DNA of 64,000 bases, taken from contig CAVOYH010000004.1 of assembly GCA_963700635.1 (NCBI GenBank), positions 480,001-544,000 of the forward strand, read 5' to 3'. Positions 4,341-37,166 of this stretch are shown one piece after another. Under the pieces are notes generated by a model. That model did no database searches, was not told the DNA's origin, and saw only the letters and a list, made by a program, of their open reading frames with translations. This stretch comes from an uncultured Bacteroidota bacterium (GTDB lineage: Bacteria; Bacteroidota; Ignavibacteria; UBA10030; UBA6906). The position numbers and the translations under genes were made by a program. Position 1 is the first letter of the stretch, and each line of letters begins with the position of its first letter.

Positions 4341-4356
4341 TGCAACGTGTGTGCCA
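4341..4356 (-). promoter_or_regulatory. sigma54 -24/-12 promoter for the leftward EPS arm
   Basis: Minus strand reads TGGCACACACGTTGCA, a near-perfect TGGCAC-N5-TTGC match, 28 nt upstream of the Wzz start. Confidence 0.85.
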
Positions 4357-4539: not shown

Positions 4540-4555
4540 AGGCACGGTTGTTGCA
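4540..4555 (+). promoter_or_regulatory. sigma54 -24/-12 promoter for the rightward EPS arm
   Basis: AGGCACGGTTGTTGCA with correct GG-N10-GC spacing, about 64 nt upstream of the Wza-like start. Confidence 0.8.
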
Positions 4556-6252: not shown

Positions 6253-7121
6253 CAGGCCTTGCCGAACGAAAACCGACAGACGACCGGTCATCCAACGATA
6301 GGGATGCGCTGCCATTGAGCTTTGCAGAAAAACACCCCAAACATGCCGTAGGATTTGCATTCGAATCCTCGACCAATCCTGTCATGCAGGACGCCCTCAC
6401 CACGATCAAGCGGATCGCCGCGAGCCACGTAAACGTGTTGATTACCGGGGAACACGGAACAGGGAAGGAGTGGAGTGCAAATATCATACATTCCACCAGT
6501 CCCCGCTCAGCCGGACGGTTGATAACGGTCGAGTGTGCCGCATTACCTGCGGAGCGTCTGGAGCGCGAGCTCTTCGGGCATGAAGCGATCACGTGGAAGG
6601 ATGTTGATATCAGTCCCGGTGCTTTTGAGAGGTCCAGTGATGGGACGCTCGTGTTGAACGAAATCGGACTTGTCCCCCCCACATTACTCATGCGTATTGC
6701 CAGGGCCGCAGAGTATCAGAGTGTGCGCAGGATCGCAGGAGAAATCGACATTGCCGTGAACGTGCGGCTCATTGCCACCATGAGTGTTCCGTCCCACTCC
6801 AATCCGTCCAGAGAGGGGTTGCCCGAAGAGGTACTTCATCGCCTGAGTCCCATACAGGTAGAACTGCTCCCTTTGCGGAAACGGCGTGAAGACATACCAT
6901 TGCTGGTCGGGGGTTTCCTTGCGGAAATACAACACAGGATGGGGTCGGCCTCCCTTCGTATCTCCGATGCGGCGCTGGAGACATGTCTGCAATTCGACTG
7001 GCCTGGGAACTTGCGCCACTTGAGAAACGCTATTGAATATGCATCAGTCATGAGTCAGAACGACACGATTCTCCCGGAGCACCTTCCGGCATACCTCTCC
7101 GGCACGGGCAGGAGGGGATGA
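6249..7121 (+). CDS. sigma54-activator AAA+ domain protein, degenerate (no receiver, no HTH)
   Basis: GEHGTGKE, ELFGHE, WPGNLRHL; GAFTGA absent; Walker B reads LNEI. Confidence 0.85.
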   Translation: MTGLAERKPTDDRSSNDRDALPLSFAEKHPKHAVGFAFESSTNPVMQDALTTIKRIAASHVNVLITGEHGTGKEWSANIIHSTSPRSAGRLITVECAALPAERLERELFGHEAITWKDVDISPGAFERSSDGTLVLNEIGLVPPTLLMRIARAAEYQSVRRIAGEIDIAVNVRLIATMSVPSHSNPSREGLPEEVLHRLSPIQVELLPLRKRREDIPLLVGGFLAEIQHRMGSASLRISDAALETCLQFDWPGNLRHLRNAIEYASVMSQNDTILPEHLPAYLSGTGRRG

Positions 7122-22065: not shown

Positions 22066-23076
22066 CTAGGCGGATGTCTCAGGGGGCCCCGGGCCCATTT
22101 CCCGCAACCGATCATACAGATACTTTCTGCTCACACCCAATATTCGTGCTGCTTTTGCCTTGTTCCCCCCGTTTGCCTTCAGCGTGTATTCGATCATGAG
22201 CCGCTCGGCCGACAGTATCGTCGATCCGACCGGAATGGTGATAGCTTTGCGTATCGCCTGGTCCCGGAGGAGGCGCTCCGGAAGACACTCCGGCATAATT
22301 TCCGAGTGAGGGCAGGTAATCAGGAGTGCCTCCACGAGGTTGCGCAGCTCTCTGACATTTCCGGGCCACGGGTATTCAGTCAGGATCTCGAGGGTATCAG
22401 AGGAAAAGACCTTGCTGTGATCCTTCACCGCGCCATTAAGGGTTCTTAGAAAGTGGTCCAGAAGGAGAGGGATATCACATGGTCTCTCACGCAAGGGAGG
22501 AAGGTACAGCTCTACGACGGCAAGCCGGTAGTAGACGTCCTCGCGCAGAAGGCCGGATGCAAGGGCTTCCTTCACATCCCGGTTGGTAGCAGAGATGATC
22601 CGTACATCCACCTCGACTTCCTCGTTTCCACCCAACCGGCGGAATCGTTTTGTTTCGAGTGCCCGGAGGAGTTTTGCCTGAACGTTTGGTGACATTTCGG
22701 CGATTTCGTCAAGGAAAAGCGTGCCGCGATGGGCGAGTTCAAAACAGCCTATCTTTTTGGAATAAGCCCCCGTGAACGCCTCCCGCTCATGTCCGAAAAG
22801 TTCATTGTCAATAACGTCCTGCGGGAGAGCTGCGCAATTTACTTCAATACAGGGGTTTTCGGCCTGTGCGCTCTGGCCATGAATGTACTTTGCCAGCACA
22901 TCCTTCCCCGTTCCGCTCTCTCCGGTTATCAGGACCGCTACCTGTGATTGAGCCACCCTGACGGCTTGCGAAAGCAGGTCAAGGATGGGCGGATGCATGG
23001 TCACAAATGCGGATTTTGTTACGTCCGGGCCGGTGATAATGCCTGAACCGGAGGTCCGGGTGGGTCTACATCCCAT
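22066..23076 (-). CDS. sigma54-dependent activator (AAA+ and Fis HTH, no N-terminal sensor; PspF-like architecture)
   Basis: GESGTGKD, EAFTGA, FLDEI, WPGNVREL, NKAKAARILGVSR. Confidence 0.92.
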   Translation of the reverse strand: MGCRPTRTSGSGIITGPDVTKSAFVTMHPPILDLLSQAVRVAQSQVAVLITGESGTGKDVLAKYIHGQSAQAENPCIEVNCAALPQDVIDNELFGHEREAFTGAYSKKIGCFELAHRGTLFLDEIAEMSPNVQAKLLRALETKRFRRLGGNEEVEVDVRIISATNRDVKEALASGLLREDVYYRLAVVELYLPPLRERPCDIPLLLDHFLRTLNGAVKDHSKVFSSDTLEILTEYPWPGNVRELRNLVEALLITCPHSEIMPECLPERLLRDQAIRKAITIPVGSTILSAERLMIEYTLKANGGNKAKAARILGVSRKYLYDRLREMGPGPPETSA

Positions 23077-27015: not shown

Positions 27016-28314
27016 TCAGCCGGTTGATGCTGGTCTGCCCGGCGGTGAGTCCACAATCTGCTGTAATCGGCTGACCACCTGGATCATCGAACGCACGGTA
27101 TGGTAGTTGATTTTCCAGCCGTGTCCGAGCACTCCATCTATGACCTTCCCTTCGCGGGATACACGTTCGTACCATTCTCCCCCGCCTTCCATATTGACAA
27201 TGTGGGTGAACAGGAAATCCCAGACCTTCCGGAATGAAGTCCAGTACCGTTCCTCACCGAAGTGAATGTACCCATCCAGCAATCCGATAAGCACTTCCCC
27301 CTGCTGCCAGAACTGTTTTTGTGTATGGGTGGTCGGCGCTTGATCCGGTCCTTCGCAATAGACGCCGCCAAACTCGTGGTCAAAGCCGTAACGGAGACAG
27401 TGATCGCACATGTTTCGGAGTACCGCCGTATAGTGAGCCGGGTCCAGACCGAGGACTTCCGCTGCGTGCAGTAACAACCAGGCAAATTCAACGTTATGTC
27501 CGTATGAGGTAAAGTCCAGCGGATGGGTCGACCCGTCGTCGGGTGCGGCGTCACGTCCCCAGGCAGTAGCGAAGATTATTGCAGGCAGCGGACGAAAATC
27601 GTACGTAAACTGTGCATACCCAGTGCCGGATCCAGGGCGGAGCATCCGGGCGAGCAGCAGGTCGATAACCTCAAGAAGGCGGCGGCGATGGGTGGGATGG
27701 CCGGTCATTTCGTAGAATGTTGTTAGTGCCTCCATCATGTGCATATGCACATCCAGGCTTTTCCTGTCGCCACCAAAACGTCCGGGGCGTTCCGGTTGCC
27801 AATCCCGCTGCATGAGTTCGATGAACCCGCCGTGCCGGGTATCAACCATGTGCTCGCACACTACCCTGTAGGTCGCCTCCGCAGCGGTGCGGCCCCGCTC
27901 GTCGCCCGTTGCGAGGAAGTATTCACTAAATGCGTAGATTCCGAATGTATGACCGTATCCCACTTTCGCGGTGTTGGTCGGATTCCCCTCGCGGTCGGCT
28001 ATCCAGTACCAGCCTCCATGTTCCGCGTCCCAGTAATGATCAAGGATAAACGTGGCGGCCATTTCGGCCAGTTCCGCACAGCGCCCCTGGCCGTATCCCG
28101 CCCGGTGCGCGCTTGCCATCGTGTACAGCATCCGAATCTGAGAGAGGAACGTCTTTGTCGTCTCACCCGTGGGTTTGCCGTTCCGGTCGAAGTGTACAAG
28201 AAACCCCCCTGTTGACGGGTCAGGGGAGCGTTCCATCCAGAAGGGGAGCAGGGATTGCGTCAGATAGGATCGGGCATGGGTCAGAAGATCGGTAACGTCA
28301 GCTGTCGCGGGCAT
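27016..28314 (-). CDS. AGE family epimerase (cellobiose / N-acylglucosamine 2-epimerase-like)
   Basis: LLPFW, QIR, YWD..GG, HMHMMEA, SYGHNVE, FWQQGE, WK.NYH. Confidence 0.88.
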   Translation of the reverse strand: MPATADVTDLLTHARSYLTQSLLPFWMERSPDPSTGGFLVHFDRNGKPTGETTKTFLSQIRMLYTMASAHRAGYGQGRCAELAEMAATFILDHYWDAEHGGWYWIADREGNPTNTAKVGYGHTFGIYAFSEYFLATGDERGRTAAEATYRVVCEHMVDTRHGGFIELMQRDWQPERPGRFGGDRKSLDVHMHMMEALTTFYEMTGHPTHRRRLLEVIDLLLARMLRPGSGTGYAQFTYDFRPLPAIIFATAWGRDAAPDDGSTHPLDFTSYGHNVEFAWLLLHAAEVLGLDPAHYTAVLRNMCDHCLRYGFDHEFGGVYCEGPDQAPTTHTQKQFWQQGEVLIGLLDGYIHFGEERYWTSFRKVWDFLFTHIVNMEGGGEWYERVSREGKVIDGVLGHGWKINYHTVRSMIQVVSRLQQIVDSPPGRPASTG

Positions 28315-28466
28315 ACTCTCCTCCGGGTGATTGCCGTTTGGGTAAAACGGAACAGTACGCGATGGGAATTGAGGTACCGGGATGTGCGCATGCGGTACGT
28401 GTGTAAGATGCGTAACGCGAGATGCATTAGCAAGAGAGGTAGCGGAGCGAGGGCAGCGCTCAAACG

Positions 28467-28499
28467 AACAGGGGCCGGATGTGTGATCCGGCCCCTGTT
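28467..28499 (-). terminator. intrinsic terminator after yidB-like gene
   Basis: Perfect 14-bp stem AACAGGGGCCGGAT-N5-ATCCGGCCCCTGTT, T-rich tail on the minus strand. Confidence 0.75.
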
Positions 28500-28528
28500 G
28501 TGGAGCGTGAGGGTAATGCGTGTGTAGT

Positions 28529-28927
28529 CTACTTCATGAGCCCTTTCAGGAGCCCCATTCCCTGCGACATGATGTCACCCTGCGGGATTTTTCCGCCCGC
28601 GGTGAGTTTATCAACCACGTCGGGAAGAAGTTTGGACAACTGGGATGTCACGTCGCCGGGAGCCATCCCTGCAGTTGTTGCAAGGTCCGTGATCGTCTTC
28701 GTCCCAAAGCCCTTCTCCACCTGCTGAGGTGTGATCGGGAGGTTCGTCCCGGTACTTATCCACGAATTGACGATGTCGCCCAGCCCCTGTCCCGCAAATT
28801 GTTTCACAAGGCCTTCAATCCCGCCGCTCTTCGGGTTTCCGATAAGTCCCATGACTGCAGTAATCAGCTGACTCTGTGAGCCGCCTCCGCCCATAACCTG
28901 TCCGGCGATGCTTTCGAGTATTCCCAT
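28529..28927 (-). CDS. YidB/DUF937 family protein
   Basis: GGIEGLVKQF..GLGDIVNSWISTG.N.PI...LLPDVVDKLT. Confidence 0.88.
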   Translation of the reverse strand: MGILESIAGQVMGGGGSQSQLITAVMGLIGNPKSGGIEGLVKQFAGQGLGDIVNSWISTGTNLPITPQQVEKGFGTKTITDLATTAGMAPGDVTSQLSKLLPDVVDKLTAGGKIPQGDIMSQGMGLLKGLMK

Positions 28928-28991
28928 AATATCTCCTTTTGTGATCGGTTAAAAAAGTAAGTTGTCATTCAGAACGTTACCTCTCCGCGCA

Positions 28992-29022
28992 AGGAGCCTC
29001 CGGCGGGGCCGGAGGCGCTCCT
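28992..29022 (-). terminator. GC-rich hairpin after the OmpA gene (terminator or mRNA stabiliser)
   Basis: AGGAGCCTCCGGC-GGG-GCCGGAGGCGCTCCT; weak U tract. Confidence 0.4.
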
Positions 29023-29033
29023 GGCGGATAGAA

Positions 29034-30554
29034 CTATTTCGTGCGATAGAACTCGATACGTCTGTTCTGCGCACGACCTTCAGGCGTCGAGTTGTCCGCA
29101 ATCGGGTTCTCGGGGCCATATCCGTTCACCGCGATGCGGCCGGGTGCGATCCCCTTCATCACAAGCCACGCCTTGACGGTTTCTGCACGGCGTAAAGAAA
29201 GGTTTTTGTTGCTCGCCACCCTGCCCACGTTATCGGTGTAGCCGCGAATCTCTACGGCAATGGTCGGATTGTCATTGAGGGTGTTGAGTGCATCCATCAG
29301 ATTCTCCTCGGATGCCTGTTCGATGGTAGACTTGCCGGACCCGAATACGATTCCTTCGAGCACGATAGCCTTCCCAACCTCTATCGCCTGGATGGCCTTC
29401 TTCGGGACGTCGTCCTTCGGATCAAGAGGGTTCTTGCCTTTGGCAATTTCCTGGCCATCACTGACGGTGCCACCATCGGTATCTGCCTTGAGGGGACTGG
29501 TGCGATATTTGACTACTTCGTCGCTATCACTCAGGCCATCTCCATCGGTGTCGGCTTTCAGGGGGTCCGTCAGGTATTGTGAGACTTCCTCTCCATCGTT
29601 CAAGCCATCAGCATCAGTGTCTGCTTTTAACGGGTCGGTGTGATGTTTGTGGATCTCATCACCGTCCTTAAGCTTGTCACCATCAGTGTCAGCGTTTACA
29701 GGGGAGGTATGGAATGTAATAACTTCCTCGCCATCCAGCAGGCCGTCCATATCGGTGTCCGCGACCTTCGGGTCGGTGTTGTGCTTTGCCAGCTCTTCGT
29801 AGTCAGTCAGACCGTCACCATCGGTGTCCGGCTTGTTCATATCGGTACCGATGGATTTCTCGTACCCGTTTGTCAGGAGGTCGCCGTCAGTATCATCATC
29901 GTCGCTGTCGCCGAGATAGAAGTTGACACCCAACCGGCCTGTGGGGTACCAATCGGTTCCCAGAAAATTTTCGGTGCCGGTTGTAAAATTATCGGTATTC
30001 TTGTCCATGATGCGAGCGCCGAGGTCCACGGAAAGAGCCACGCCCCTGGAGAGCGCGATTTCCATACCGACTCCGACCGGGACATGAATCGAAGTGTAAT
30101 TGTCCTCCGCGGGCCAGCCTTTGTCACCTGCGATCGTTCGCTTATAGGAGATCATGCCTACGCCCATATAGATATACGGCGCAACAGTCTTGCCGGCATT
30201 CAGGTGGAACCATGCAACAAGGTCACCGCTCATCCCTTTTGCCGAGAGGTAGGAATTCTGAAGAGCGATCGGGGCCTGGGGCACATTGGACTCTTTTGAG
30301 GTAAGCTCATCCCACCCGCCCATCAGACCAAGCGAGAAATCACGCGTGAATGAATAACGCAGGAACGCGTCTCCGCCTGCGGTGATCGTCCGGGTGTCGA
30401 AATCATTGACCCACATGTTTCCTCCACCCTGGACCCCGAAGGACCAGCGGCCGGAATGGTTAAACCAGCCCGGACTCTGTGGAGGGGCCACCTGTGCGAG
30501 GCCAAAAGTGGCTATCAGGGGCAGCAGAAAGAGAGCAGAAGAAAGTCTTTTCAT
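29034..30554 (-). CDS. OmpA family outer-membrane protein: beta-barrel + TSP3-like Ca-binding repeats + OmpA_C
   Basis: Signal peptide from ATG 30554, barrel strands, DTDGDG repeats, GYTDNVG..N..LS.RRA..V, NRRIE. Confidence 0.9.
   Translation of the reverse strand: MKRLSSALFLLPLIATFGLAQVAPPQSPGWFNHSGRWSFGVQGGGNMWVNDFDTRTITAGGDAFLRYSFTRDFSLGLMGGWDELTSKESNVPQAPIALQNSYLSAKGMSGDLVAWFHLNAGKTVAPYIYMGVGMISYKRTIAGDKGWPAEDNYTSIHVPVGVGMEIALSRGVALSVDLGARIMDKNTDNFTTGTENFLGTDWYPTGRLGVNFYLGDSDDDDTDGDLLTNGYEKSIGTDMNKPDTDGDGLTDYEELAKHNTDPKVADTDMDGLLDGEEVITFHTSPVNADTDGDKLKDGDEIHKHHTDPLKADTDADGLNDGEEVSQYLTDPLKADTDGDGLSDSDEVVKYRTSPLKADTDGGTVSDGQEIAKGKNPLDPKDDVPKKAIQAIEVGKAIVLEGIVFGSGKSTIEQASEENLMDALNTLNDNPTIAVEIRGYTDNVGRVASNKNLSLRRAETVKAWLVMKGIAPGRIAVNGYGPENPIADNSTPEGRAQNRRIEFYRTK
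29418..29894 (-). repeat. seven tandem ~23-aa (69-bp) DTDxDGLxDxxE...TxP repeats within the OmpA gene
   Basis: Direct reading of the translation; degenerate at DNA level. Confidence 0.85.
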
Positions 30555-30683
30555 AGATTTACTCCAATGTGTGATAAGATAGTTCATTGTCACGCTTTGC
30601 GTGGTCGGTTCGTCTACCCCGGATGCTCAAACGGGTCGGCGAGCCTCTTTGGGATTAGTCATGTGACCGATCATTGTATATAT

Positions 30684-30699
30684 TGCGAAACCCGTGCCA
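30684..30699 (-). promoter_or_regulatory. sigma54 -24/-12 promoter for OmpA/TSP3 (and probably yidB)
   Basis: Minus strand TGGCACGGGTTTCGCA, GG-N10-GC. Confidence 0.8.
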
Positions 30700-30795
30700 T
30701 GATTCTAGTCAAGAACGGGGAATTGCTAATGTGTTTATTAATAACAGGTTATCGGATCTTTTCCAGACGGCTACCGGTTGAGATGCTTGAAATGT

Positions 30796-30831
30796 CCCAC
30801 GATATATAGCGGTCTCACGATATATCGTGGG
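30796..30831. promoter_or_regulatory. tandem palindromic enhancer (UAS) candidate
   Basis: Imperfect CCCACGATATATAGCGG plus perfect 14-bp palindrome CACGATATATCGTG (30816-30829), about 100-130 bp upstream of the -24 box with an AT-rich spacer. Confidence 0.7.
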
Positions 30832-30877
30832 ATTCGTGGGTGACGAGAGTAGTGTAGATCGTGGGGGTGGGGGATTG

Positions 30878-32653
30878 TCAGGAAACCGGGTGGAATCCGC
30901 TTTCTGTTCTCTCTATTCCCAGTTTCTTGATCCGGCTTCTGAGGGTTGCGGGTTTGAGGCCCAGAGCAGCAGCCGCACCACGGGGTCCTTCGATTACGCC
31001 GCCGCATTCTTCCAGCGTACGGAGAAGGTGCTGGCGCGCCATCTCGTCATACGTCTGTTTTTTGTTGCCCGTTTGATGCTGCACATGAACAAGCGCGAGT
31101 TGACTTTCTTCGAGGGTATTTCCTTCGCATACAATCATGGCGCGTTCGATAACATTTGCCAGCTCCCTTACGTTTCCCGGCCAGCTGTAGCCCATCAGAG
31201 TGCGCATGGCCTTTGGATCGACAGAGGTAACGTGCTTGTTGGTCCGGCGCGCAAAAAGACGCAAGAAATGTTCGGTGAGCAGCGGTATCTCCTCCGTACG
31301 ATTTCGAAGGGGGGGGATATGAAGGGGAAAGACGTTCAGTCGGAACAGCAGGTCTTCACGGAATCGCCCTGCCTTCACTTCTTCGTTGAGATCACGATTC
31401 GTGGCGGCGACGACCCGGGTATTGATCCTGATGGCATGCGTCCCGCCGACGCGCTCAAATTCCTGCTCCTGCAGGACCCTCAGAAGAGTCGACTGGGTGG
31501 GGAGTGGCAGCTCTCCGATTTCGTCCAGGAATACAGTCCCTCCGTCTGCAAGCTCAAAACGACCGATACGTTTCTGCAGAGCGCCTGTAAAAGCTCCCTT
31601 CTCGTGCCCGAAGAGTTCGCTTTCGACGAGATTTGCAGGAAGTGCCGCGCAGTTGACTGTAACAAGCAGTTTCTTGCTGCGATTGCTCAACCGGTGGATC
31701 TCTCTCGCGACCAGTTCCTTGCCCGTGCCCGTCTCTCCCGTGATCAGTACCGTCGTGTCCGTGACGGCAACCTTGGCAAGATCTTTCATGAGAGCCTTCG
31801 TCGCAGGGGAGGATCCGACAATTTCAGACGTCCCCTGGTTTGTACTCAGGACTTCATGCAGTGTCAGGTTTTCGGTTTCAAGTTTTGAAATCCGGGCTTC
31901 GGCCTGTTTCTGTTCTCGGAGATCACGCCCGAGATACACGACGCCGTGTACAACATGTTCCCCGGTGTCGAGCGGGGCACGCGTGAAACTGACAGGGATA
32001 GCGGTGCCGTCTTTTGAAAGGCAACGTAACTCGGTAGGAATGGACTCCCAGCTTATCTTCGTCCCTCTGGCAATACGCTCATCCGGGAGCAAATCCGTAA
32101 TAGGCCGGCCGACAAGTTCAGGGTCCGTAAAATCTGTCAGCGTGAGGGTGGCACGGTTTACGGCACTGATGACACCGTCGGCGGATGTAACAATGAGCAT
32201 GTCGGCCATTGCATCGAAAATATTTTCTATAAAGGCCTTCGAGGCGGTCATTGCGTGCATCAATAACAACGCGTCAATCGAAGTCTGTGTTCGCTTCTGA
32301 ATCTCCTCCATCCATTCCGTCACATCCTCGACGATCAACACTAGCGAATCTGTTGACCTGGTATCGCGGGATACGGTGACCGTAATATAGAGAGGGGGAG
32401 TGTTATCATGCGGACGGGAGATGCCGCGGATGATCAGGGAACGGCGGTCGGCGCTGAGGACGTCCGCGAGATCGTCCTCTGTGCCCACAAGCTCCGGAAA
32501 AGCGAGACGGACGTCATTGCCCACAGTCACCGCGCTTGGATCATCCGCAAGCCTGGCAGCGTGTTCGGAGATCCCCGTGATCAACAGAGCCCTGTCGAGC
32601 ATCACGAACTCGACCACCCTCGGGCGGAACATACTGTCAATCGTGAGATCCAT
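30878..32653 (-). CDS. PAS-PAS sigma54-dependent activator (FhlA-like AAA+ and HTH)
   Basis: GETGTGKE, ESELFGHEKGAFTGA, FLDEIGE, WPGNVREL, GPRGAAAALGL; PAS motif VNRATLTLTDFT..ELVGRPI; start probably ATG 32653. Confidence 0.92.
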   Translation of the reverse strand: MDLTIDSMFRPRVVEFVMLDRALLITGISEHAARLADDPSAVTVGNDVRLAFPELVGTEDDLADVLSADRRSLIIRGISRPHDNTPPLYITVTVSRDTRSTDSLVLIVEDVTEWMEEIQKRTQTSIDALLLMHAMTASKAFIENIFDAMADMLIVTSADGVISAVNRATLTLTDFTDPELVGRPITDLLPDERIARGTKISWESIPTELRCLSKDGTAIPVSFTRAPLDTGEHVVHGVVYLGRDLREQKQAEARISKLETENLTLHEVLSTNQGTSEIVGSSPATKALMKDLAKVAVTDTTVLITGETGTGKELVAREIHRLSNRSKKLLVTVNCAALPANLVESELFGHEKGAFTGALQKRIGRFELADGGTVFLDEIGELPLPTQSTLLRVLQEQEFERVGGTHAIRINTRVVAATNRDLNEEVKAGRFREDLLFRLNVFPLHIPPLRNRTEEIPLLTEHFLRLFARRTNKHVTSVDPKAMRTLMGYSWPGNVRELANVIERAMIVCEGNTLEESQLALVHVQHQTGNKKQTYDEMARQHLLRTLEECGGVIEGPRGAAAALGLKPATLRSRIKKLGIERTESGFHPVS

Positions 32654-33176
32654 TTCCCATGTCCCTGAGAAGGTGGGATCCGAGCTGTATGAAGAGCTCA
32701 TCAACGCCTTCTCCTGATTTTGCGGATGTATGATGCGTTGCCAACACCCCGGTGTTGTCTCCCGAGATGTCGATCATCGCATCATTCTGCGCGTCGCCCT
32801 GCAGATCCATCTTGTTCAGCGCGACAACAATCCGCCCGGTCGGATTGATCCGCCTGAAACGGCCAACATGACCCCGGATCTCTTCAACCGTGGAGGGCCG
32901 GGTGAGATCTCCCACAATAACTGCTCCCCGGGCTCCTTTGAGATAGGTCGAAGAAATATCGAGCCATGTGTGGCCCCCCTCAAGATCCCACAAAACAAGC
33001 TGAAGATCGTCCTCCCGGCCGCTCTCTGGCGCCGGAATCCGAAGCAGCTTCCGGCTGATTTTTACCCCCACCGTCGAGAGATAGGCGTCGCTGAATGAGC
33101 GGTCGACAAAACGCCGGATCAGGCTTGTTTTTCCGACCGAAACCTCTCCCAGAATGCACACTTTTGCGAGTTTCAT
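32637..33176 (-). CDS. Rab/Ras-like small GTPase (Rup-type)
   Basis: 179 aa; G1 GEVSVGKT, G2 YLSTVG, G3 WDLEG, G4 NKMD, G5 TSAK; no C-terminal prenylation Cys. Confidence 0.93.
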   Translation of the reverse strand: MKLAKVCILGEVSVGKTSLIRRFVDRSFSDAYLSTVGVKISRKLLRIPAPESGREDDLQLVLWDLEGGHTWLDISSTYLKGARGAVIVGDLTRPSTVEEIRGHVGRFRRINPTGRIVVALNKMDLQGDAQNDAMIDISGDNTGVLATHHTSAKSGEGVDELFIQLGSHLLRDMGNGSHD

Positions 33177-35056
33177 TGGCGACGGACTGAATCGGGTGAG
33201 AGGAGTGTGAACCTGACACAGCGGCTGAGGCTGTCCTGGGCGACAGGCGTGCTCCCTGGAGGCGGAGCGGGATTTCCCTCTACGATCATTCGGGCCGCCG
33301 GAATGCCGGACCGGAGCAGGACAGCCTGAGCGGCCCGTGCCCGTCCGAGGGCGATCCGCTGATTTCCGGATCTGTCGCCCGAGAGATCACTGTGCCCGAT
33401 AATACGTAACGTTGACCATGGCGTTTCTTCCACAATGTCGTGGACCTGCTTCAGAACGGCATGTCCTGCGGGACCGACCTCGATGGAATTCACATCGAAC
33501 AATAATCGTGGTGCAATGTCATTCCGACCCGGGGAAACCAGGTGCTGGAACGATCGCAGCCCGGGAAGGTCGGCGAACGTTCGTCTGATATTCTCCGCCG
33601 TTGAGGAATCCGGCGCGATGCCCGAGACAATGAGCTCCGGTCCTTTCCACTGAACGTCAAGATACACGCCGTCCATGGTGTTTAATGCCGACGTAATCGC
33701 CCCCGTGCTCGTGGTGAGCAGAACCGGAAAAGGAGGAGCAGGTCCCGGGGCAATGTGGTTTTCGATAAGCGGAGCGGGTGGTCCGATGCCGGCTGCCAAT
33801 CCGGCCCTCTCACGCTGATACTCATTCGCGACAGATCCCGTAAGACGGAGGACACCCCGGTTTGCCTCAACGGTGACATCTCTGAACGATACGGAGTCTG
33901 TCGCGCGCAGAACGGCCATGGTTCGGATTTCAGTGTTCCGGTCGGTGTTATTGCGATAAAGATACACCCCCAGGGGGATGCAGGCCGCGATGAGGAGAAG
34001 CAGTCCCACGGCGATCACAGCACGCGGTTTGGAACTTCGCCGTGCGGGTGTCGAACCGTATGAGCCCCTGACGAGCTTCTCCATGGAGTGCCCCACACTG
34101 TCGGGGACCCGGGTTACATCGCCAACAAACTCTGCAATATGCTCACCGGGCAGCTGGACGATCATGCTCACAGTCTCGCGTAGCTGTGTGCGGAACGCTT
34201 CATTGGGAATGCCCCGGAGCACTGCAGCCACATAACAGGTTCCTGCACCCTCGAGCACAATTCTGGATTCCCCGTATTCGATCTGGTCCAGTTCGCGGGC
34301 ACTTCTCCCGGTGTTCATTGACTCGTTAAACAGGCTCCGGATTGCCGTGAGCATTCCCGACAGGAGATCGGAGTCAAGGGCCGGAGCCTCCTGATTCTGG
34401 GACTGGGCAATAACGAGACCGGATGCTTTGTGAATAAGAAACGCCGCGTCCACCGTGCACCAGAGGGAGTCGCGAAGCAGGAGTTCCGCTTCGGAAACCC
34501 CTGTGACGCGGGAGCGGATCTTACGAGAAATTGCGCCGAGGCTGAGATGGGATTCGATTCTCTCATTCATCCTCTCAACAAGCGTGTTAAGAGTTTCTGA
34601 GAGATACTTGGATATCGTGCTGCCGATGACAGGATAGAGGGCATCGATCACCGCATCCCGTTCACTGCGGATTTGCTCTTTAATCGCTGCGCCGACCAAC
34701 GGGGCGAGATCGCGGGCAGCCGATGCAGGCGTGTTCGCATAATGAATAGCGATTGCCTCTGTGCTGGCAGGTGCCAGGGCCTGCGTCATGGCTGTCCGGT
34801 CCTGCTCAATCTTCTCACGGATTGCCTGGTCAAGGAGGGGGGTGACAGTCTTGAGTATCGCCAGACTCGTGGCCGGGTCACGGCGCCGGATCATCTCTAC
34901 AAGGACCGGTTCCAGAAGCCGGGAGAGCTGGACGGGATCCTGGACCTGACGCTGGAGAGCCTCAAGATCCTGCTGAAGGGTGTTGAGGGAGGTAACTTCC
35001 GGGGTGAGCAGAAGCTCCCGCAGCTGCTGGAACTCTGACGGCACTGCCATCAGCAA
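33173..35056 (-). CDS. membrane protein: helical region + longin/roadblock-like domain + TM + BON + OmpA_C
   Basis: AFLIHKASGLVI...DSDLLSGMLTAIRS segment; TM AVIAVGLLLLIAACIPLGVYLY; BON-like LTGSV; OmpA GHSD..G....N..IA..RA. Confidence 0.8.
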   Translation of the reverse strand: MLMAVPSEFQQLRELLLTPEVTSLNTLQQDLEALQRQVQDPVQLSRLLEPVLVEMIRRRDPATSLAILKTVTPLLDQAIREKIEQDRTAMTQALAPASTEAIAIHYANTPASAARDLAPLVGAAIKEQIRSERDAVIDALYPVIGSTISKYLSETLNTLVERMNERIESHLSLGAISRKIRSRVTGVSEAELLLRDSLWCTVDAAFLIHKASGLVIAQSQNQEAPALDSDLLSGMLTAIRSLFNESMNTGRSARELDQIEYGESRIVLEGAGTCYVAAVLRGIPNEAFRTQLRETVSMIVQLPGEHIAEFVGDVTRVPDSVGHSMEKLVRGSYGSTPARRSSKPRAVIAVGLLLLIAACIPLGVYLYRNNTDRNTEIRTMAVLRATDSVSFRDVTVEANRGVLRLTGSVANEYQRERAGLAAGIGPPAPLIENHIAPGPAPPFPVLLTTSTGAITSALNTMDGVYLDVQWKGPELIVSGIAPDSSTAENIRRTFADLPGLRSFQHLVSPGRNDIAPRLLFDVNSIEVGPAGHAVLKQVHDIVEETPWSTLRIIGHSDLSGDRSGNQRIALGRARAAQAVLLRSGIPAARMIVEGNPAPPPGSTPVAQDSLSRCVRFTLLSPDSVRRQ

Positions 35057-35566
35057 TCACCTGCCTGATTTTCTGCCAACGGCGTTTGTAAGTTCTTCGA
35101 GGATTTTCACACCTTTGAGTTTCGCAGCCAGTTCCTGAAGGAGATCCGCCATCGCTTCTCTGGAGACATTGGTGTCCCTCAGATCAGCCACCCGCTGCTG
35201 CAGCTCCTCCCTGAAATGCTCTTTCAGGAGAACCATCTCCGACCGGTGCTTCGTCTTGGTGCCAGCAAGTTCTTCCTGGACTGATGAAAGGGAGGTTTCC
35301 AACTGTTGGATCTTCGAGGATAGCTCCGTCCGAACTAACGATTGAGACTGGTCGATGAGTTTCTGAAGTCTGGCTCCTTCTTCGTGCAGTTCATCGAGCA
35401 GCTTCCGGGCAGAAGTGCGGGACTCCTCCTGGAATCGATCTAGTTCTGCCACAATCTCTTCAAATCGCTGGTCGTTCCGTCGTTTTTGCGGACCGAGGAT
35501 AATATCCCGGATCTGATCGATGTGGTCAGGAACGTTCTGGGATGATTCGTTTGGCGGCTTCGCCAT
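35057..35566 (-). CDS. coiled-coil protein, first gene of the GTPase operon
   Basis: DQIRDIILG N-terminal motif, heptad-rich, abuts the next gene; GGAG RBS. Confidence 0.75.
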   Translation of the reverse strand: MAKPPNESSQNVPDHIDQIRDIILGPQKRRNDQRFEEIVAELDRFQEESRTSARKLLDELHEEGARLQKLIDQSQSLVRTELSSKIQQLETSLSSVQEELAGTKTKHRSEMVLLKEHFREELQQRVADLRDTNVSREAMADLLQELAAKLKGVKILEELTNAVGRKSGR

Positions 35567-35741
35567 TCAAGATCTCCAAAAAAGGTGACGGGCGGGTTAT
35601 AACGGTGGGTGGCCGGCTGTTACCGCTGCTCCACATCGTTTATAGTACCTATTCTGCCCTTGATTATCAAGATTCGGTCCTCACCCGGATGCAGGGACGC
35701 GGAAAGTGGCCCGTTCCGGCCAACGCTGCGGTGTAGAGGGA

Positions 35742-37034
35742 TTACCGCGCGAGTGTCATTTTTCTTGTCAGGATCAATCCGACCACCTCCATCCGGAGCA
35801 GATAGACCCCGCTTGCCAGACGCCCTCCATCAAACCGAACGTCAAACGTCCCTTCCGGTTTTTCACCATTCACCAGCGTCGCCACTTCCCGGCCCAGAAT
35901 GTCATATACTGCTAACTTCAATGTCCGGCCGCCGCTGCCCGCGGTGCTCAAGGCCCCGGCGGGAACACTGTACCGGATCGTGGTGACCGGATTAAATGGG
36001 TTGGGATAATTCTGTTCGAGGGCAAAGGCGGCAGGAGGAACCTGATTGTGTGGCGCCGAGGTGGGGCCTGACACTCCCAGTTCAACTGCGATGCCGCGGA
36101 GGATCGCGTTGGCTGTCGAGTCAAATGCCCGCGCGGCGGTTGAATTCATGTCTTCGTACGTAAGGGCGAGAACGGCCTCCCTGTGATTCAGCCAGAACCA
36201 GCTCTCCGGATAGACAAGGGACGGGGCGCTGGGCCATGTGACGAAAAAATTGTGGGGTTGAATGCCCCCCGGAAAGAAACTCCTGACGCCATCGATAAAA
36301 CGTTGTTCGATAACGGCGTAGGCCGCTGACGTTCCCCCGGCAGCGTGGAACACAAAATACCTGACTTCTCCGGAAGCCGAGTGCATGTTGAGTGCGATGC
36401 GGATGGGATTACCCAATGGCATAAGCGTACCGAACATCCTCCGGAGCGTTTGTACTTCCGGCTCGCCCGGAACAGCCGTCCAGTTACTTTCGATATCAAC
36501 ATTGTGAGCGTTCCAGCGCGCGAGTCTGAGCTCCACGCCATCGGGGTTGATCATCGGGAGTATATTAAAGACGCACTCACGGCGGAGCAAACGGGAAAAG
36601 TCTGAGTTGCCAAGCAGCTGGGCGATCATCTCGTTCGTTACCCAGGTCCCCTGCACTTCAGCCGGGTGTGTCCGGGCGTGGATCCAGATACGTTTCCGCG
36701 GTTGTGGGGTTGTGGCCGTGTCTTCTATCGTGAGCATGTACAGTGCCCGGTTCTGCACGCTCGCCCCGACTGAATCGATGCGAACAAAGGGGCTGGCAGA
36801 CCATCGTAGCAGGTCGGCGCGCAGCGAATCATAACCATATCCCCAGTTCTGGGCTGCGGCCAACCGGTATGCCGCTGTTGTCGTGTCAGGCAGACCACAC
36901 GGGTCGCCGTCCCGGGCCGAGGGCAACCGTCCTTGCTCTCCGGCGTGGAGGGATGTTGTTGAGAAAATACACAGAAGAAAAAAACAGAGTTTCACATACA
37001 TGCTGGCGGAACCGGAAGCAGAAGAAGTTTTCAT
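35742..37034 (-). CDS. M14 zinc carboxypeptidase with T9SS type A sorting domain
   Basis: ARTHPAE, NPDGV, LNMHS, TYE; C-terminal LEQNYPNPFNP; start uncertain (37034 or nearby). Confidence 0.85.
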   Translation of the reverse strand: MKTSSASGSASMYVKLCFFLLCIFSTTSLHAGEQGRLPSARDGDPCGLPDTTTAAYRLAAAQNWGYGYDSLRADLLRWSASPFVRIDSVGASVQNRALYMLTIEDTATTPQPRKRIWIHARTHPAEVQGTWVTNEMIAQLLGNSDFSRLLRRECVFNILPMINPDGVELRLARWNAHNVDIESNWTAVPGEPEVQTLRRMFGTLMPLGNPIRIALNMHSASGEVRYFVFHAAGGTSAAYAVIEQRFIDGVRSFFPGGIQPHNFFVTWPSAPSLVYPESWFWLNHREAVLALTYEDMNSTAARAFDSTANAILRGIAVELGVSGPTSAPHNQVPPAAFALEQNYPNPFNPVTTIRYSVPAGALSTAGSGGRTLKLAVYDILGREVATLVNGEKPEGTFDVRFDGGRLASGVYLLRMEVVGLILTRKMTLAR

Positions 37035-37166
37035 GGATTTAATATCGGAACACTCTGCGCGATACGCAAGAGGAGCACTCACGATCGAGAGAAAAAGCGC
37101 CACGGGTTGCGGGTGTCGTTGTCTCGTTGTACATTGGGTTGCCATAGATACAGGAGGAATACCCAG

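Follow-up and report, generated by a model that had tools for sequence, protein, structure and literature searches.

What does a small GTPase of the Ras superfamily control when its gene is wedged between those for a membrane protein and a sigma-54 activator? The question arises in a window of 64,000 nucleotides from an uncultured Bacteroidota bacterium of the class Ignavibacteria (positions 480,001 to 544,000 of contig CAVOYH010000004.1, assembly GCA_963700635.1), where the minus strand encodes six genes from 35566 to 28529. We read this locus as a Group 1 Rup small-GTPase signalling system with a sigma-54 enhancer-binding protein as its output, a reading to which we give a probability of about 0.72. 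The evidence that carries it is conserved gene order, an N-terminal domain shared by the activator and other outputs of the same module, a predicted complex of that domain with the GTPase, and an enhancer and promoter next to the activator gene. The features, in gene order, are:

35057–35566, minus strand: coiled-coil protein of 169 amino acids (aa), first gene of the module (open reading frame, ORF)
33173–35056, minus strand: membrane protein with longin-like, transmembrane (TM), BON and OmpA-like parts (ORF and Pfam)
32637–33176, minus strand: Ras-superfamily small GTPase of 179 aa with Group 1 Rup features (Pfam Ras, 2e-20; Roc, 3.7e-19)
30878–32653, minus strand: sigma-54 activator, that is, bacterial enhancer-binding protein (bEBP), 591 aa, with N-domain (~1–135), PAS, AAA+ with GAFTGA and putative C-terminal helix-turn-helix (HTH) (Pfam)
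30795–30832, minus strand: tandem palindromic upstream activating sequence (UAS, here the putative enhancer), two 18-nt repeats with core CACGATATATCGTG
30730–30760, minus strand: A/T-rich conserved block between enhancer and promoter (five-way intergenic alignment)
30684–30699, minus strand: sigma-54 type −24/−12 promoter TGGCACGGGTTTCGCA
29034–30593, minus strand: putative target gene 1, OmpA-TSP3, with OMP_b-brl, TSP3_bac and OmpA domains (Pfam)
28529–28927, minus strand: putative target gene 2, YidB-like protein of 132 aa (Pfam YidB, 2.2e-21)

Gene order, overlaps and abutments proved to be as an initial annotation of this DNA had described them. The stop codon of the coiled-coil gene, whose product matched zero Pfam families above cut-off, abuts the start codon of the membrane protein gene; the stop of the latter and the GTPase start share an ATGA overlap, and the bEBP ATG overlaps the GTPase 3′ end by 17 nt. 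The bEBP start at 32653 is in line with a 591-aa database copy, and the database copy of the membrane protein (625 aa) starts two codons downstream. The OmpA-TSP3 protein combines an outer-membrane beta-barrel with TSP3 repeats of the calcium-binding type and an OmpA-like domain of the peptidoglycan-binding type. Its gene is likely to start at the ATG at 30545, ahead of a signal-peptide-like stretch, and yidB begins 106 nt past its stop. A scan of 28200–35800 detected no terminator-like site between these two genes, and for sigma-70 promoters and terminators it gave nothing beyond shuffled expectation that would alter the reading.

The four-gene module is already in the literature. Group 1 Rup GTPases, as presented in the available part of Wuichet and Sogaard-Andersen (Genome Biol Evol 2015; PMC4316618), have eukaryote-like G motifs without a G3 glutamine and are encoded beside a coiled-coil cytoplasmic protein, a protein combining an unknown domain with a membrane helix and an OmpA domain, and, as fourth component, an output protein whose shared N-terminal region carries an invariant glutamine that is suggested to act in trans. 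The same source contains the model in which the membrane protein signals to the Rup GTPase and the GTPase to the output protein, likens Group 1 to the actinobacterial conservon, and names as 'typical' outputs in its main text GGDEF/EAL proteins (enzymes of cyclic di-GMP) and histidine kinases. It also says that Rup GTPases have no demonstrated function, as the initial annotation had noted, and the searched literature held no later work. Our locus matches this description in its four components and their order, in a GTPase without G3 glutamine and in an N-terminal region with a conserved glutamine, and the taxa named there (Bacteroidetes and Cyanobacteria) agree with those of our loci. It differs in its output, a sigma-54 bEBP for which enhancer, promoter and target are visible in the sequence; across our loci nucleotidyl cyclases are common outputs as well (25 of 104 N-domain ORFs). 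The word 'sigma' is absent from the paper's main text, while supplementary table S2 may list bEBP neighbours, and we found no report in the searched literature of a bEBP under small-GTPase control. What is added here is the sigma-54 output and its visible target. The wiring first proposed for the locus, from membrane protein through GTPase and bEBP to a sigma-54 promoter, is favoured by synteny, the shared N-domain, the predicted complex and the longin fold; its four-gene model had been published before.

The GTPase is a single-domain protein with complete G1–G5 motifs (GEVSVGKT, YLSTVG, WDLEGGH, NKMD and TSAK, with T35 also present), and at 179 aa it falls within the Rup definition of at most 240 aa with canonical G1–G5. 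Its G3, WDLEGGH, lacks glutamine: the consensus of a 42-row alignment is WDLEG followed by a variable position, and none of the 21 displayed rows has Q after DxxG, where G, S, H or N stands instead. No cysteine occurs at the C-terminus (...GNGSHD). The protein is the sole strong Ras-family match in its 4.2-Mb genome and shares 44–51% identity with GTPases from cyanobacterial loci that have this gene neighbourhood. The label 'Rab-like', used at first, holds at the level of the Ras superfamily (Pfam Ras, Roc and Arf); for Rab specifically the tools give no such support. Some cyanobacterial loci (G and L numbers are our handles for genomes and loci) contain a second GTPase paralog (L024 8906–9442, L031 8906–9436, L069 3777–4310 and L027 6862–7383). 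Displayed or scored copies from three of these four have degenerate motifs (G1 GESDVGKS, G3 WSVTG), and such paralogs may be pseudo-GTPases.

We next consider how widely the module is kept together. The GTPase was present in 7 of 41 related genomes, namely all six of the genus and one other genus of the family, and in none of the other 34; in the six loci from relatives the four genes were colinear without exception. For the cytoplasmic part of the membrane protein, 8000 scored candidates included at least 1245 relatives, most of them from filamentous cyanobacteria. One genome per species was then scanned, which confirmed 554 loci, and the best 80, again mostly cyanobacterial, were fetched and are the basis of every 80-locus count given here. 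All four genes were found in 74 of the 80 loci and the GTPase together with an N-domain output in 76; in 77 the membrane protein gene is preceded by a coiled-coil homolog, and a hidden Markov model of the N-domain matched the gene after the GTPase in 76. Both GTPase and N-domain output were missing from four loci, three of them cut by contig ends (L034, L072 and L079) and one, L023, not cut. These counts come from the synteny survey that had been suggested for the locus.

The bEBP form of the module belongs to the window's own phylum in our data. Seven bEBP loci among the 80 are labelled Bacteroidota, Ignavibacteriota or Chlorobi, and in a 401-genome sample of the phylum 17 genomes had the membrane-protein domain, 7 of these 17 with an N-domain bEBP beside the GTPase. 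With loci on a shared contig merged before counting, the bEBP form occurs in 12 genomes (G000 to G005, G022, G348, G178, G324, G416 and the metagenome-assembled genome of L028). The initial annotation had made its proposal depend on the activator being kept beside the GTPase module, and it is kept there in every bEBP-type locus examined in these 12 genomes. Comparison shows the four genes as one conserved, translationally coupled operon, and likewise an exchange of the output domain of the known Rup-type operon for a sigma-54 AAA+/HTH unit. A bEBP with a receiver (REC) domain that lies ~1 kb from the module in L123 has no N-domain and was treated as unrelated rather than as the module's output. 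In L127, L128 and L130, from other classes of the phylum, soluble proteins of 280–310 aa match the longin-containing part only and adjoin a Rup-like GTPase; no N-domain output was detected beside them.

The bEBP itself is a canonical activator in its central part. Pfam assigned PAS_9 at ORF residues 168–263, Sigma54_activat (PF00158) at 5e-71 and AAA_lid_14; Walker A (GETGTGKE) is at residue 306, Walker B (DEIGE) at 377, and the GAFTGA motif, at 353, is intact as first noted. The best NCBIfam models were NifA, NorR, FhlA and PrdR, each below its cut-off. The window genome has rpoN and ~18 strong Sigma54_activat matches; besides this bEBP gene, two such genes lie in the window, at ~6372–6860 and ~22507–22995.

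Its N-domain is common to the kinase, cyclase and GGDEF outputs of the Rup module. We aligned the domain with those of the kinase proteins and found an invariant motif (P53 E54 .. G57. E59) and near-invariant Q119 and Q123, each kept in at least 90% of 46 rows; the two are candidates for the glutamine of the 2015 paper. The 80 loci held 104 N-domain ORFs, which we sorted by similarity to the domains that Pfam named on 10 representatives: 31 histidine kinases, 30 hybrid kinases (histidine kinase plus REC), 25 class III nucleotidyl cyclases, 7 bEBPs, 2 GGDEF proteins and 9 unclassified or cut. When 46 N-domains were placed in a tree, the ten from bEBPs fell together on one side of a branch with support of 97/88. 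Pfam gave no match on bEBP residues 1–150. The best PDB profile match, to Rv1364c, is below significance (E = 0.065) and presumably falls on that protein's PAS domain. Feature neighbours in the ESM Atlas were PAS clusters (score 0.97), and all ten best family-assigned matches there lie in the clan of these clusters. A PAS fold is plausible for the N-domain, so that of the 'PAS-PAS' arrangement first described the PAS between N-domain and AAA+ is significant in Pfam and the N-terminal one is plausible, with no Pfam match. A word-indexed search with residues 1–150 returned 5 matches among 662 candidates, which reflects the reach of the method and not rarity of the domain. A profile search of 1.84 billion representatives was set aside as a count of N-domains: its 506-position profile came from full-length kinase rows, and PAS and kinase sequences dominate the 643,477 matches.

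Two further arrangements of N-domain outputs were observed. The bEBP of G416 (L120 11255–12649) is minimal, with 464 aa, the N-domain directly on AAA+ and a strong HTH_8, and no PAS; its gene is followed by one for a small soluble histidine kinase. Elsewhere two or three consecutive N-domain outputs stand behind a single GTPase (L042, L043, L057, L029 and many Microcoleus loci), for example a kinase and then a GAF-PAS cyclase, and one GTPase may feed several outputs.

We modelled the GTPase with GTP and Mg in complex with the N-domain in three runs, with three controls, from alignments of 42 rows for the GTPase and 46 rows for the N-domain. This modelling, which the initial annotation had suggested, gave a median score of 0.78 over the three runs against 0.18 for the best of the controls. 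A score of 0.78 is reached by 58 of 80 solved complexes and by 2 of 110 mismatched pairs, a mark that is rough here since custom alignments and ligands were used. The runs share at least 93% of contacts, and partner predicted local distance difference test (pLDDT) values are at least 84. On the GTPase the predicted interface comprises residues 12–13 (P-loop), 32–40 (switch I and strand 2), 61, 66 and 77–82 (switch II region); on the N-domain it comprises 53–58 (the invariant PE..G motif), 73–79 (a strand) and 115–133 (the helix bearing Q119 and Q123). This predicted surface is the one used by Ras effectors or GTPase-activating proteins (GAPs), and it fits the 2015 idea of a glutamine supplied in trans without proving it.

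The PAS domain raises the most serious alternative, namely that the bEBP is governed mainly by its own PAS, through a small ligand or redox state, with the GTPase module as a modulator or in some other role (localisation or envelope assembly) and adjacency reflecting co-expression. A Pfam-significant PAS does sit between N-domain and AAA+, a PAS is retained in all ten non-bEBP outputs scanned by Pfam, and the same type of promoter occurs without the module in G014 (see below). However, the G416 bEBP does without PAS, its N-domain abutting AAA+; GTPase and N-domain are found together in 76 of 80 loci; and the predicted complex of the two passes its controls. We consider PAS control as the main input unlikely.

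The same interface allows the flow of information to be reversed: the N-domain would be chiefly a GAP, with the GTPase state under its control; the role of effector, in envelope remodelling for instance, would fall to the GTPase and the membrane protein, and the bEBP would be regulated otherwise. The missing G3 glutamine, the position of Q119 and Q123 in the predicted interface beside switch I and P-loop, and the trans-supplied glutamine proposed in the available text of PMC4316618 all suit this arrangement. Yet one N-domain is found on five classes of signalling output, as expected of an input (receiver) domain and not of a regulator with mere passengers attached, and GAP and receiver roles can coexist. 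Reversed flow is in our view improbable, a step less credible than control by the PAS, and a Rup system with the bEBP as its output remains our preferred reading.

We then examined the proposed upstream component. In the membrane protein Pfam places BON at residues 375–422 and OmpA at 519–597, and the sequence has a hydrophobic stretch at ~345–365, a putative TM helix. The overall plan would be a cytoplasmic helical region (~1–195), a longin-like domain (~199–336), the TM helix (~345–365) and periplasmic BON and OmpA-like domains. An AlphaFold2 model of residues 1–345, built from a 66-row alignment, replaced an all-helical single-sequence model of the same residues (pLDDT 44). Its N-terminal part consists of long helices, and blocks at 261–330 reach a pLDDT of 65–87. 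Its listed strands (E) and helices (H) are E200–209, E215–220, H229–247, E258–261, E264–271, E274–282, H286–301 and H319–330, so that residues 199–336 fold in the model as a beta-beta-alpha-beta-beta-beta-alpha-alpha unit. Foldseek against the PDB retrieved AP sigma, Rag C-terminal domains, TRAPP, MglB and Ykt6 at E values of 4e-4 to 4e-3. With VIA-align against 48,161 chains, all 50 rows shown were longin or roadblock proteins, led by the VAMP7 longin domain (4afi_B; Z 12.1, root mean square deviation 2.7 over 119 residues) and Fuzzy (Z 11.9), with MglB (Z 10.2) and Mon1-Ccz1 (Z 9.9) further down. Pfam gave no Robl_LC7 or longin match in the protein at E up to 0.01. The model thus supports the longin assignment, made in the initial annotation, at the level of the fold only (Foldseek E 4e-4, VIA-align Z 12.1 to VAMP7), and it shows that what PMC4316618, in its available part, calls the 'Unc' domain is longin-like in predicted structure. 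The helical region (residues ~40–195) is composed of repeated 'ALAP....AI' units, which are multiplied in some cyanobacterial homologs (P0044 and P0095), proteins of 1088–1225 aa.

Downstream of the bEBP, a 284-nt spacer contains two 18-nt direct repeats, each palindromic around CACGATATATCGTG, a perfect palindrome, and TGGCACGGGTTTCGCA lies ~120 bp downstream of the tandem repeat. Within the window, matches to neither element go beyond chance: a loose −24/−12 pattern was matched 3 times where 1.96 are expected, and the palindrome, when up to 3 mismatches are allowed, 4 times where 2.3 are expected. Across the whole 4.2-Mb genome, the sole match to the promoter variant TGGCAYGNNNTTCGCW is this site, and the palindrome with at most one mismatch has one other site. 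The window's OmpA-TSP3 gene is preceded by enhancer and −24/−12 element, and so are its counterparts in L009, L011 (at two paralogs), L012 and L013. The tandem palindromic UAS, the sigma-54 promoter, and the OmpA-TSP3 and yidB genes are where they were first reported, and enhancer and promoter are conserved in four relatives. In a five-genome alignment the spacer has a mean column identity of 47%, with enhancer, A/T block and −24/−12 element as conserved islands; TGGCA and TTCGC are invariant in the promoter, and in L028 and G002 TTCGG replaces TTCGC. The A/T-rich block has conserved columns TAA..GTTAT..ATTAGC and is possibly a site for a DNA-bending protein, judged by what we take to be a consensus like that of integration host factor.

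Position and linkage also tie the enhancer to the bEBP. It begins no more than 50 nt from the bEBP stop codon in six genomes, and 8 of the 12 bEBP-type genomes have a homolog of OmpA-TSP3 downstream of the bEBP gene. This linkage reaches L028, G348 and G178, in which the membrane protein is only 40–44% identical; among the other four genomes, the contigs of G002 and G324 end too early. A yidB gene follows OmpA-TSP3 in L011, L012 and L013 as well. In G022 the best OmpA-TSP3 ortholog (67% identity) is on a separate contig from the bEBP and has a tandem enhancer ~110 bp upstream of TGGCACAGAGATGGCG. We surveyed 15 OmpA-TSP3 homologs for the enhancer and found it at 7 of 8 from module-bearing genomes, the exception being the second G004 paralog, and at 1 of 7 (that of G014) from genomes in which no module was found. 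That a different bEBP serves this enhancer and promoter, with the Rup-linked bEBP acting elsewhere, we hold to be the least probable of the alternatives: the genome has ~18 strong Sigma54_activat matches, G014 has the enhancer without the module, and bEBP and OmpA-TSP3 are unlinked in G022, but the split of 7 of 8 versus 1 of 7 and the distance of at most 50 nt in six genomes argue for the adjacent bEBP.

Several observations weigh against a Rup system that acts through this bEBP on this promoter. The principal one, as regards an exclusive link between enhancer and module, is G014, a 98% complete genome in which we found neither Rup GTPase nor N-domain and in which the OmpA-TSP3 ortholog has a clear tandem enhancer and TGGCACGGCATTGGCG (L147 3100–3260); by this comparison the module need not be the promoter's only control. 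In G014 a query with the C-terminal 108 residues of the bEBP gave several matches at 41–46% identity, none of them a clear ortholog. Module-free homologs in G015, G013, G021, G036, G009 and G023 lack the enhancer, and that of G015 carries a canonical sigma-54 promoter in its place, so sigma-54 control of such genes is not specific to the module. In G022 the gene after the bEBP encodes a Golvesin_C protein with a type IX secretion system (T9SS) sorting tail and has no recognisable promoter, and G416 has no OmpA-TSP3 gene downstream of the bEBP. A simple pattern search found no clean −24/−12 site in the distant loci L028, L030 and L049. On the protein side, HTH_8 of the window bEBP is weak (17.8 bits, under the Pfam cut-off of 22; the G416 homolog scores 53 bits), its N-domain carries Ile at 126, a position that is Asn in nearly all others, and the longin model is only moderately confident, with a mean pLDDT of 60.8. 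All ten bEBP rows of the N-domain tree come from one phylum, which makes their clade inseparable from taxonomy. Finally, the searched literature held no experiment on any Rup system, and the 2015 paper was the sole Rup text found.

Some side observations concern the same genes. Four direct copies of a ~13-nt motif (AGTGCTTCACATC and variants) in G022 (L010 7800–8000, the same as L022 11230–11300) sit between the bEBP stop and the gene for the 916-aa Golvesin_C protein, where there is no sigma-54 site. In G014 a yidB-like gene lies upstream, not downstream, of the OmpA-TSP3 ortholog. The distant bEBP-type loci L028 (11659–11990) and L049 (11300–11600) have a small gene between bEBP and OmpA-TSP3, by eye YegP/DUF1508-like in the former and STAS-like in the latter. 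Directly upstream of the module, on the same strand, the window encodes an M14 carboxypeptidase with a T9SS C-terminal sorting domain (35742–37145, minus), which also adjoins the module in G002, G004 and the L028 genome. Elsewhere in the window there are a perfect canonical sigma-54 promoter, TGGCACACACGTTGCA, and, 200 bp off on the opposite strand, a site with one mismatch; the two lie at 4341–4356 (minus) and 4540–4555 (plus).

The Rup–sigma-54 reading suggests the following mechanism. With its periplasmic BON and OmpA-like domains the membrane protein, which may be tethered to peptidoglycan, would sense the condition of the envelope. The longin domain on the cytoplasmic side, possibly helped by the coiled-coil protein, would serve the GTPase as a platform or exchange factor and so set its nucleotide state. 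The GTPase would bind the bEBP N-domain through switch I, switch II and P-loop, and this binding would relieve or impose N-terminal control over AAA+ assembly. The enhancer-bound bEBP would then open the sigma-54 promoter and thereby make a tether between outer membrane and peptidoglycan more or less abundant. By contributing its conserved glutamines to the active site of the GTPase, the N-domain helix may give the output protein the two roles of effector and GAP.

Known systems share parts of this design. The conservon (CvnA-D or Mfp), according to the available text of PMC4316618, likewise joins a membrane sensor, a roadblock/longin-superfamily protein and a small Ras-like GTPase in one operon; in contrast to our locus, its GTPase is of the MglA family, its roadblock protein is a separate polypeptide, its sensor is a histidine kinase and it has no N-domain output protein, the GTPase itself being thought to be the output. 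MglA and MglB of Myxococcus and Thermus (PDB 3t12, 3t1r and 6hjm) also pair a Ras-like GTPase with a roadblock/longin-fold regulator (Z 10.2 and 9.5 to our model). MglB, however, is a soluble GAP, whereas the longin-type domain here belongs to a membrane protein and has its best fold matches, at Z 10–12, among longin domains of eukaryotic SNAREs, adaptor complexes and Rab exchange factors. Sigma-54 activators with non-receiver sensory N-termini (NifA, NorR, FhlA and PrdR) resemble the bEBP in their AAA+ with GAFTGA and, for the putative one here, their C-terminal HTH, and as with them the putative enhancer lies ~120 bp upstream of a −24/−12 promoter; unlike theirs, the input here would be a small GTPase acting on a dedicated N-domain. 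A reading of the locus as a conflict or defence system was rejected: an eLife 2020 paper on NTP-dependent conflict systems (PMC7159879) names OmpA and small GTPases, in its available part, only in unrelated contexts.

A broader generalization is possible, and we offer it tentatively, as something that we would at present rather doubt than assert. The N-domain may be a general bacterial 'small-GTPase receiver', both effector and GAP on switch I/II of GTP-bound Rup, whose state it would hand on to five or more classes of output (kinase, hybrid kinase, cyclase, GGDEF and sigma-54 AAA+), with the longin domain as the exchange factor. If this were true, bacteria would have a cascade of receptor, longin-type exchange factor, GTPase and effector with the logic of eukaryotic Rab and Ras, perhaps through shared ancestry.

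The interest of the locus lies in its tractability more than in surprise. Where the kinase, cyclase and cyclic di-GMP outputs of cyanobacteria are by contrast diffuse read-outs, in the bEBP variant the GTPase state would surface as transcription at one promoter, found only once in the genome, and the Rup family would gain a single-promoter read-out. With that state reported by one promoter, the whole pathway, which is small (four genes and ~290 bp of DNA), could be reassembled with a reporter in a host that has rpoN. So reconstituted, it could address whether the longin-domain protein is an exchange factor or a GAP, whether the active site is completed by the N-domain glutamines and what the BON and OmpA-like domains sense. 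A prokaryotic longin-type domain and small-GTPase control within one operon bear on the origin of eukaryotic GTPase regulators. For the organism, the reading, if true, would mean that in this lineage sigma-54 sets the level of an outer-membrane/peptidoglycan tether.

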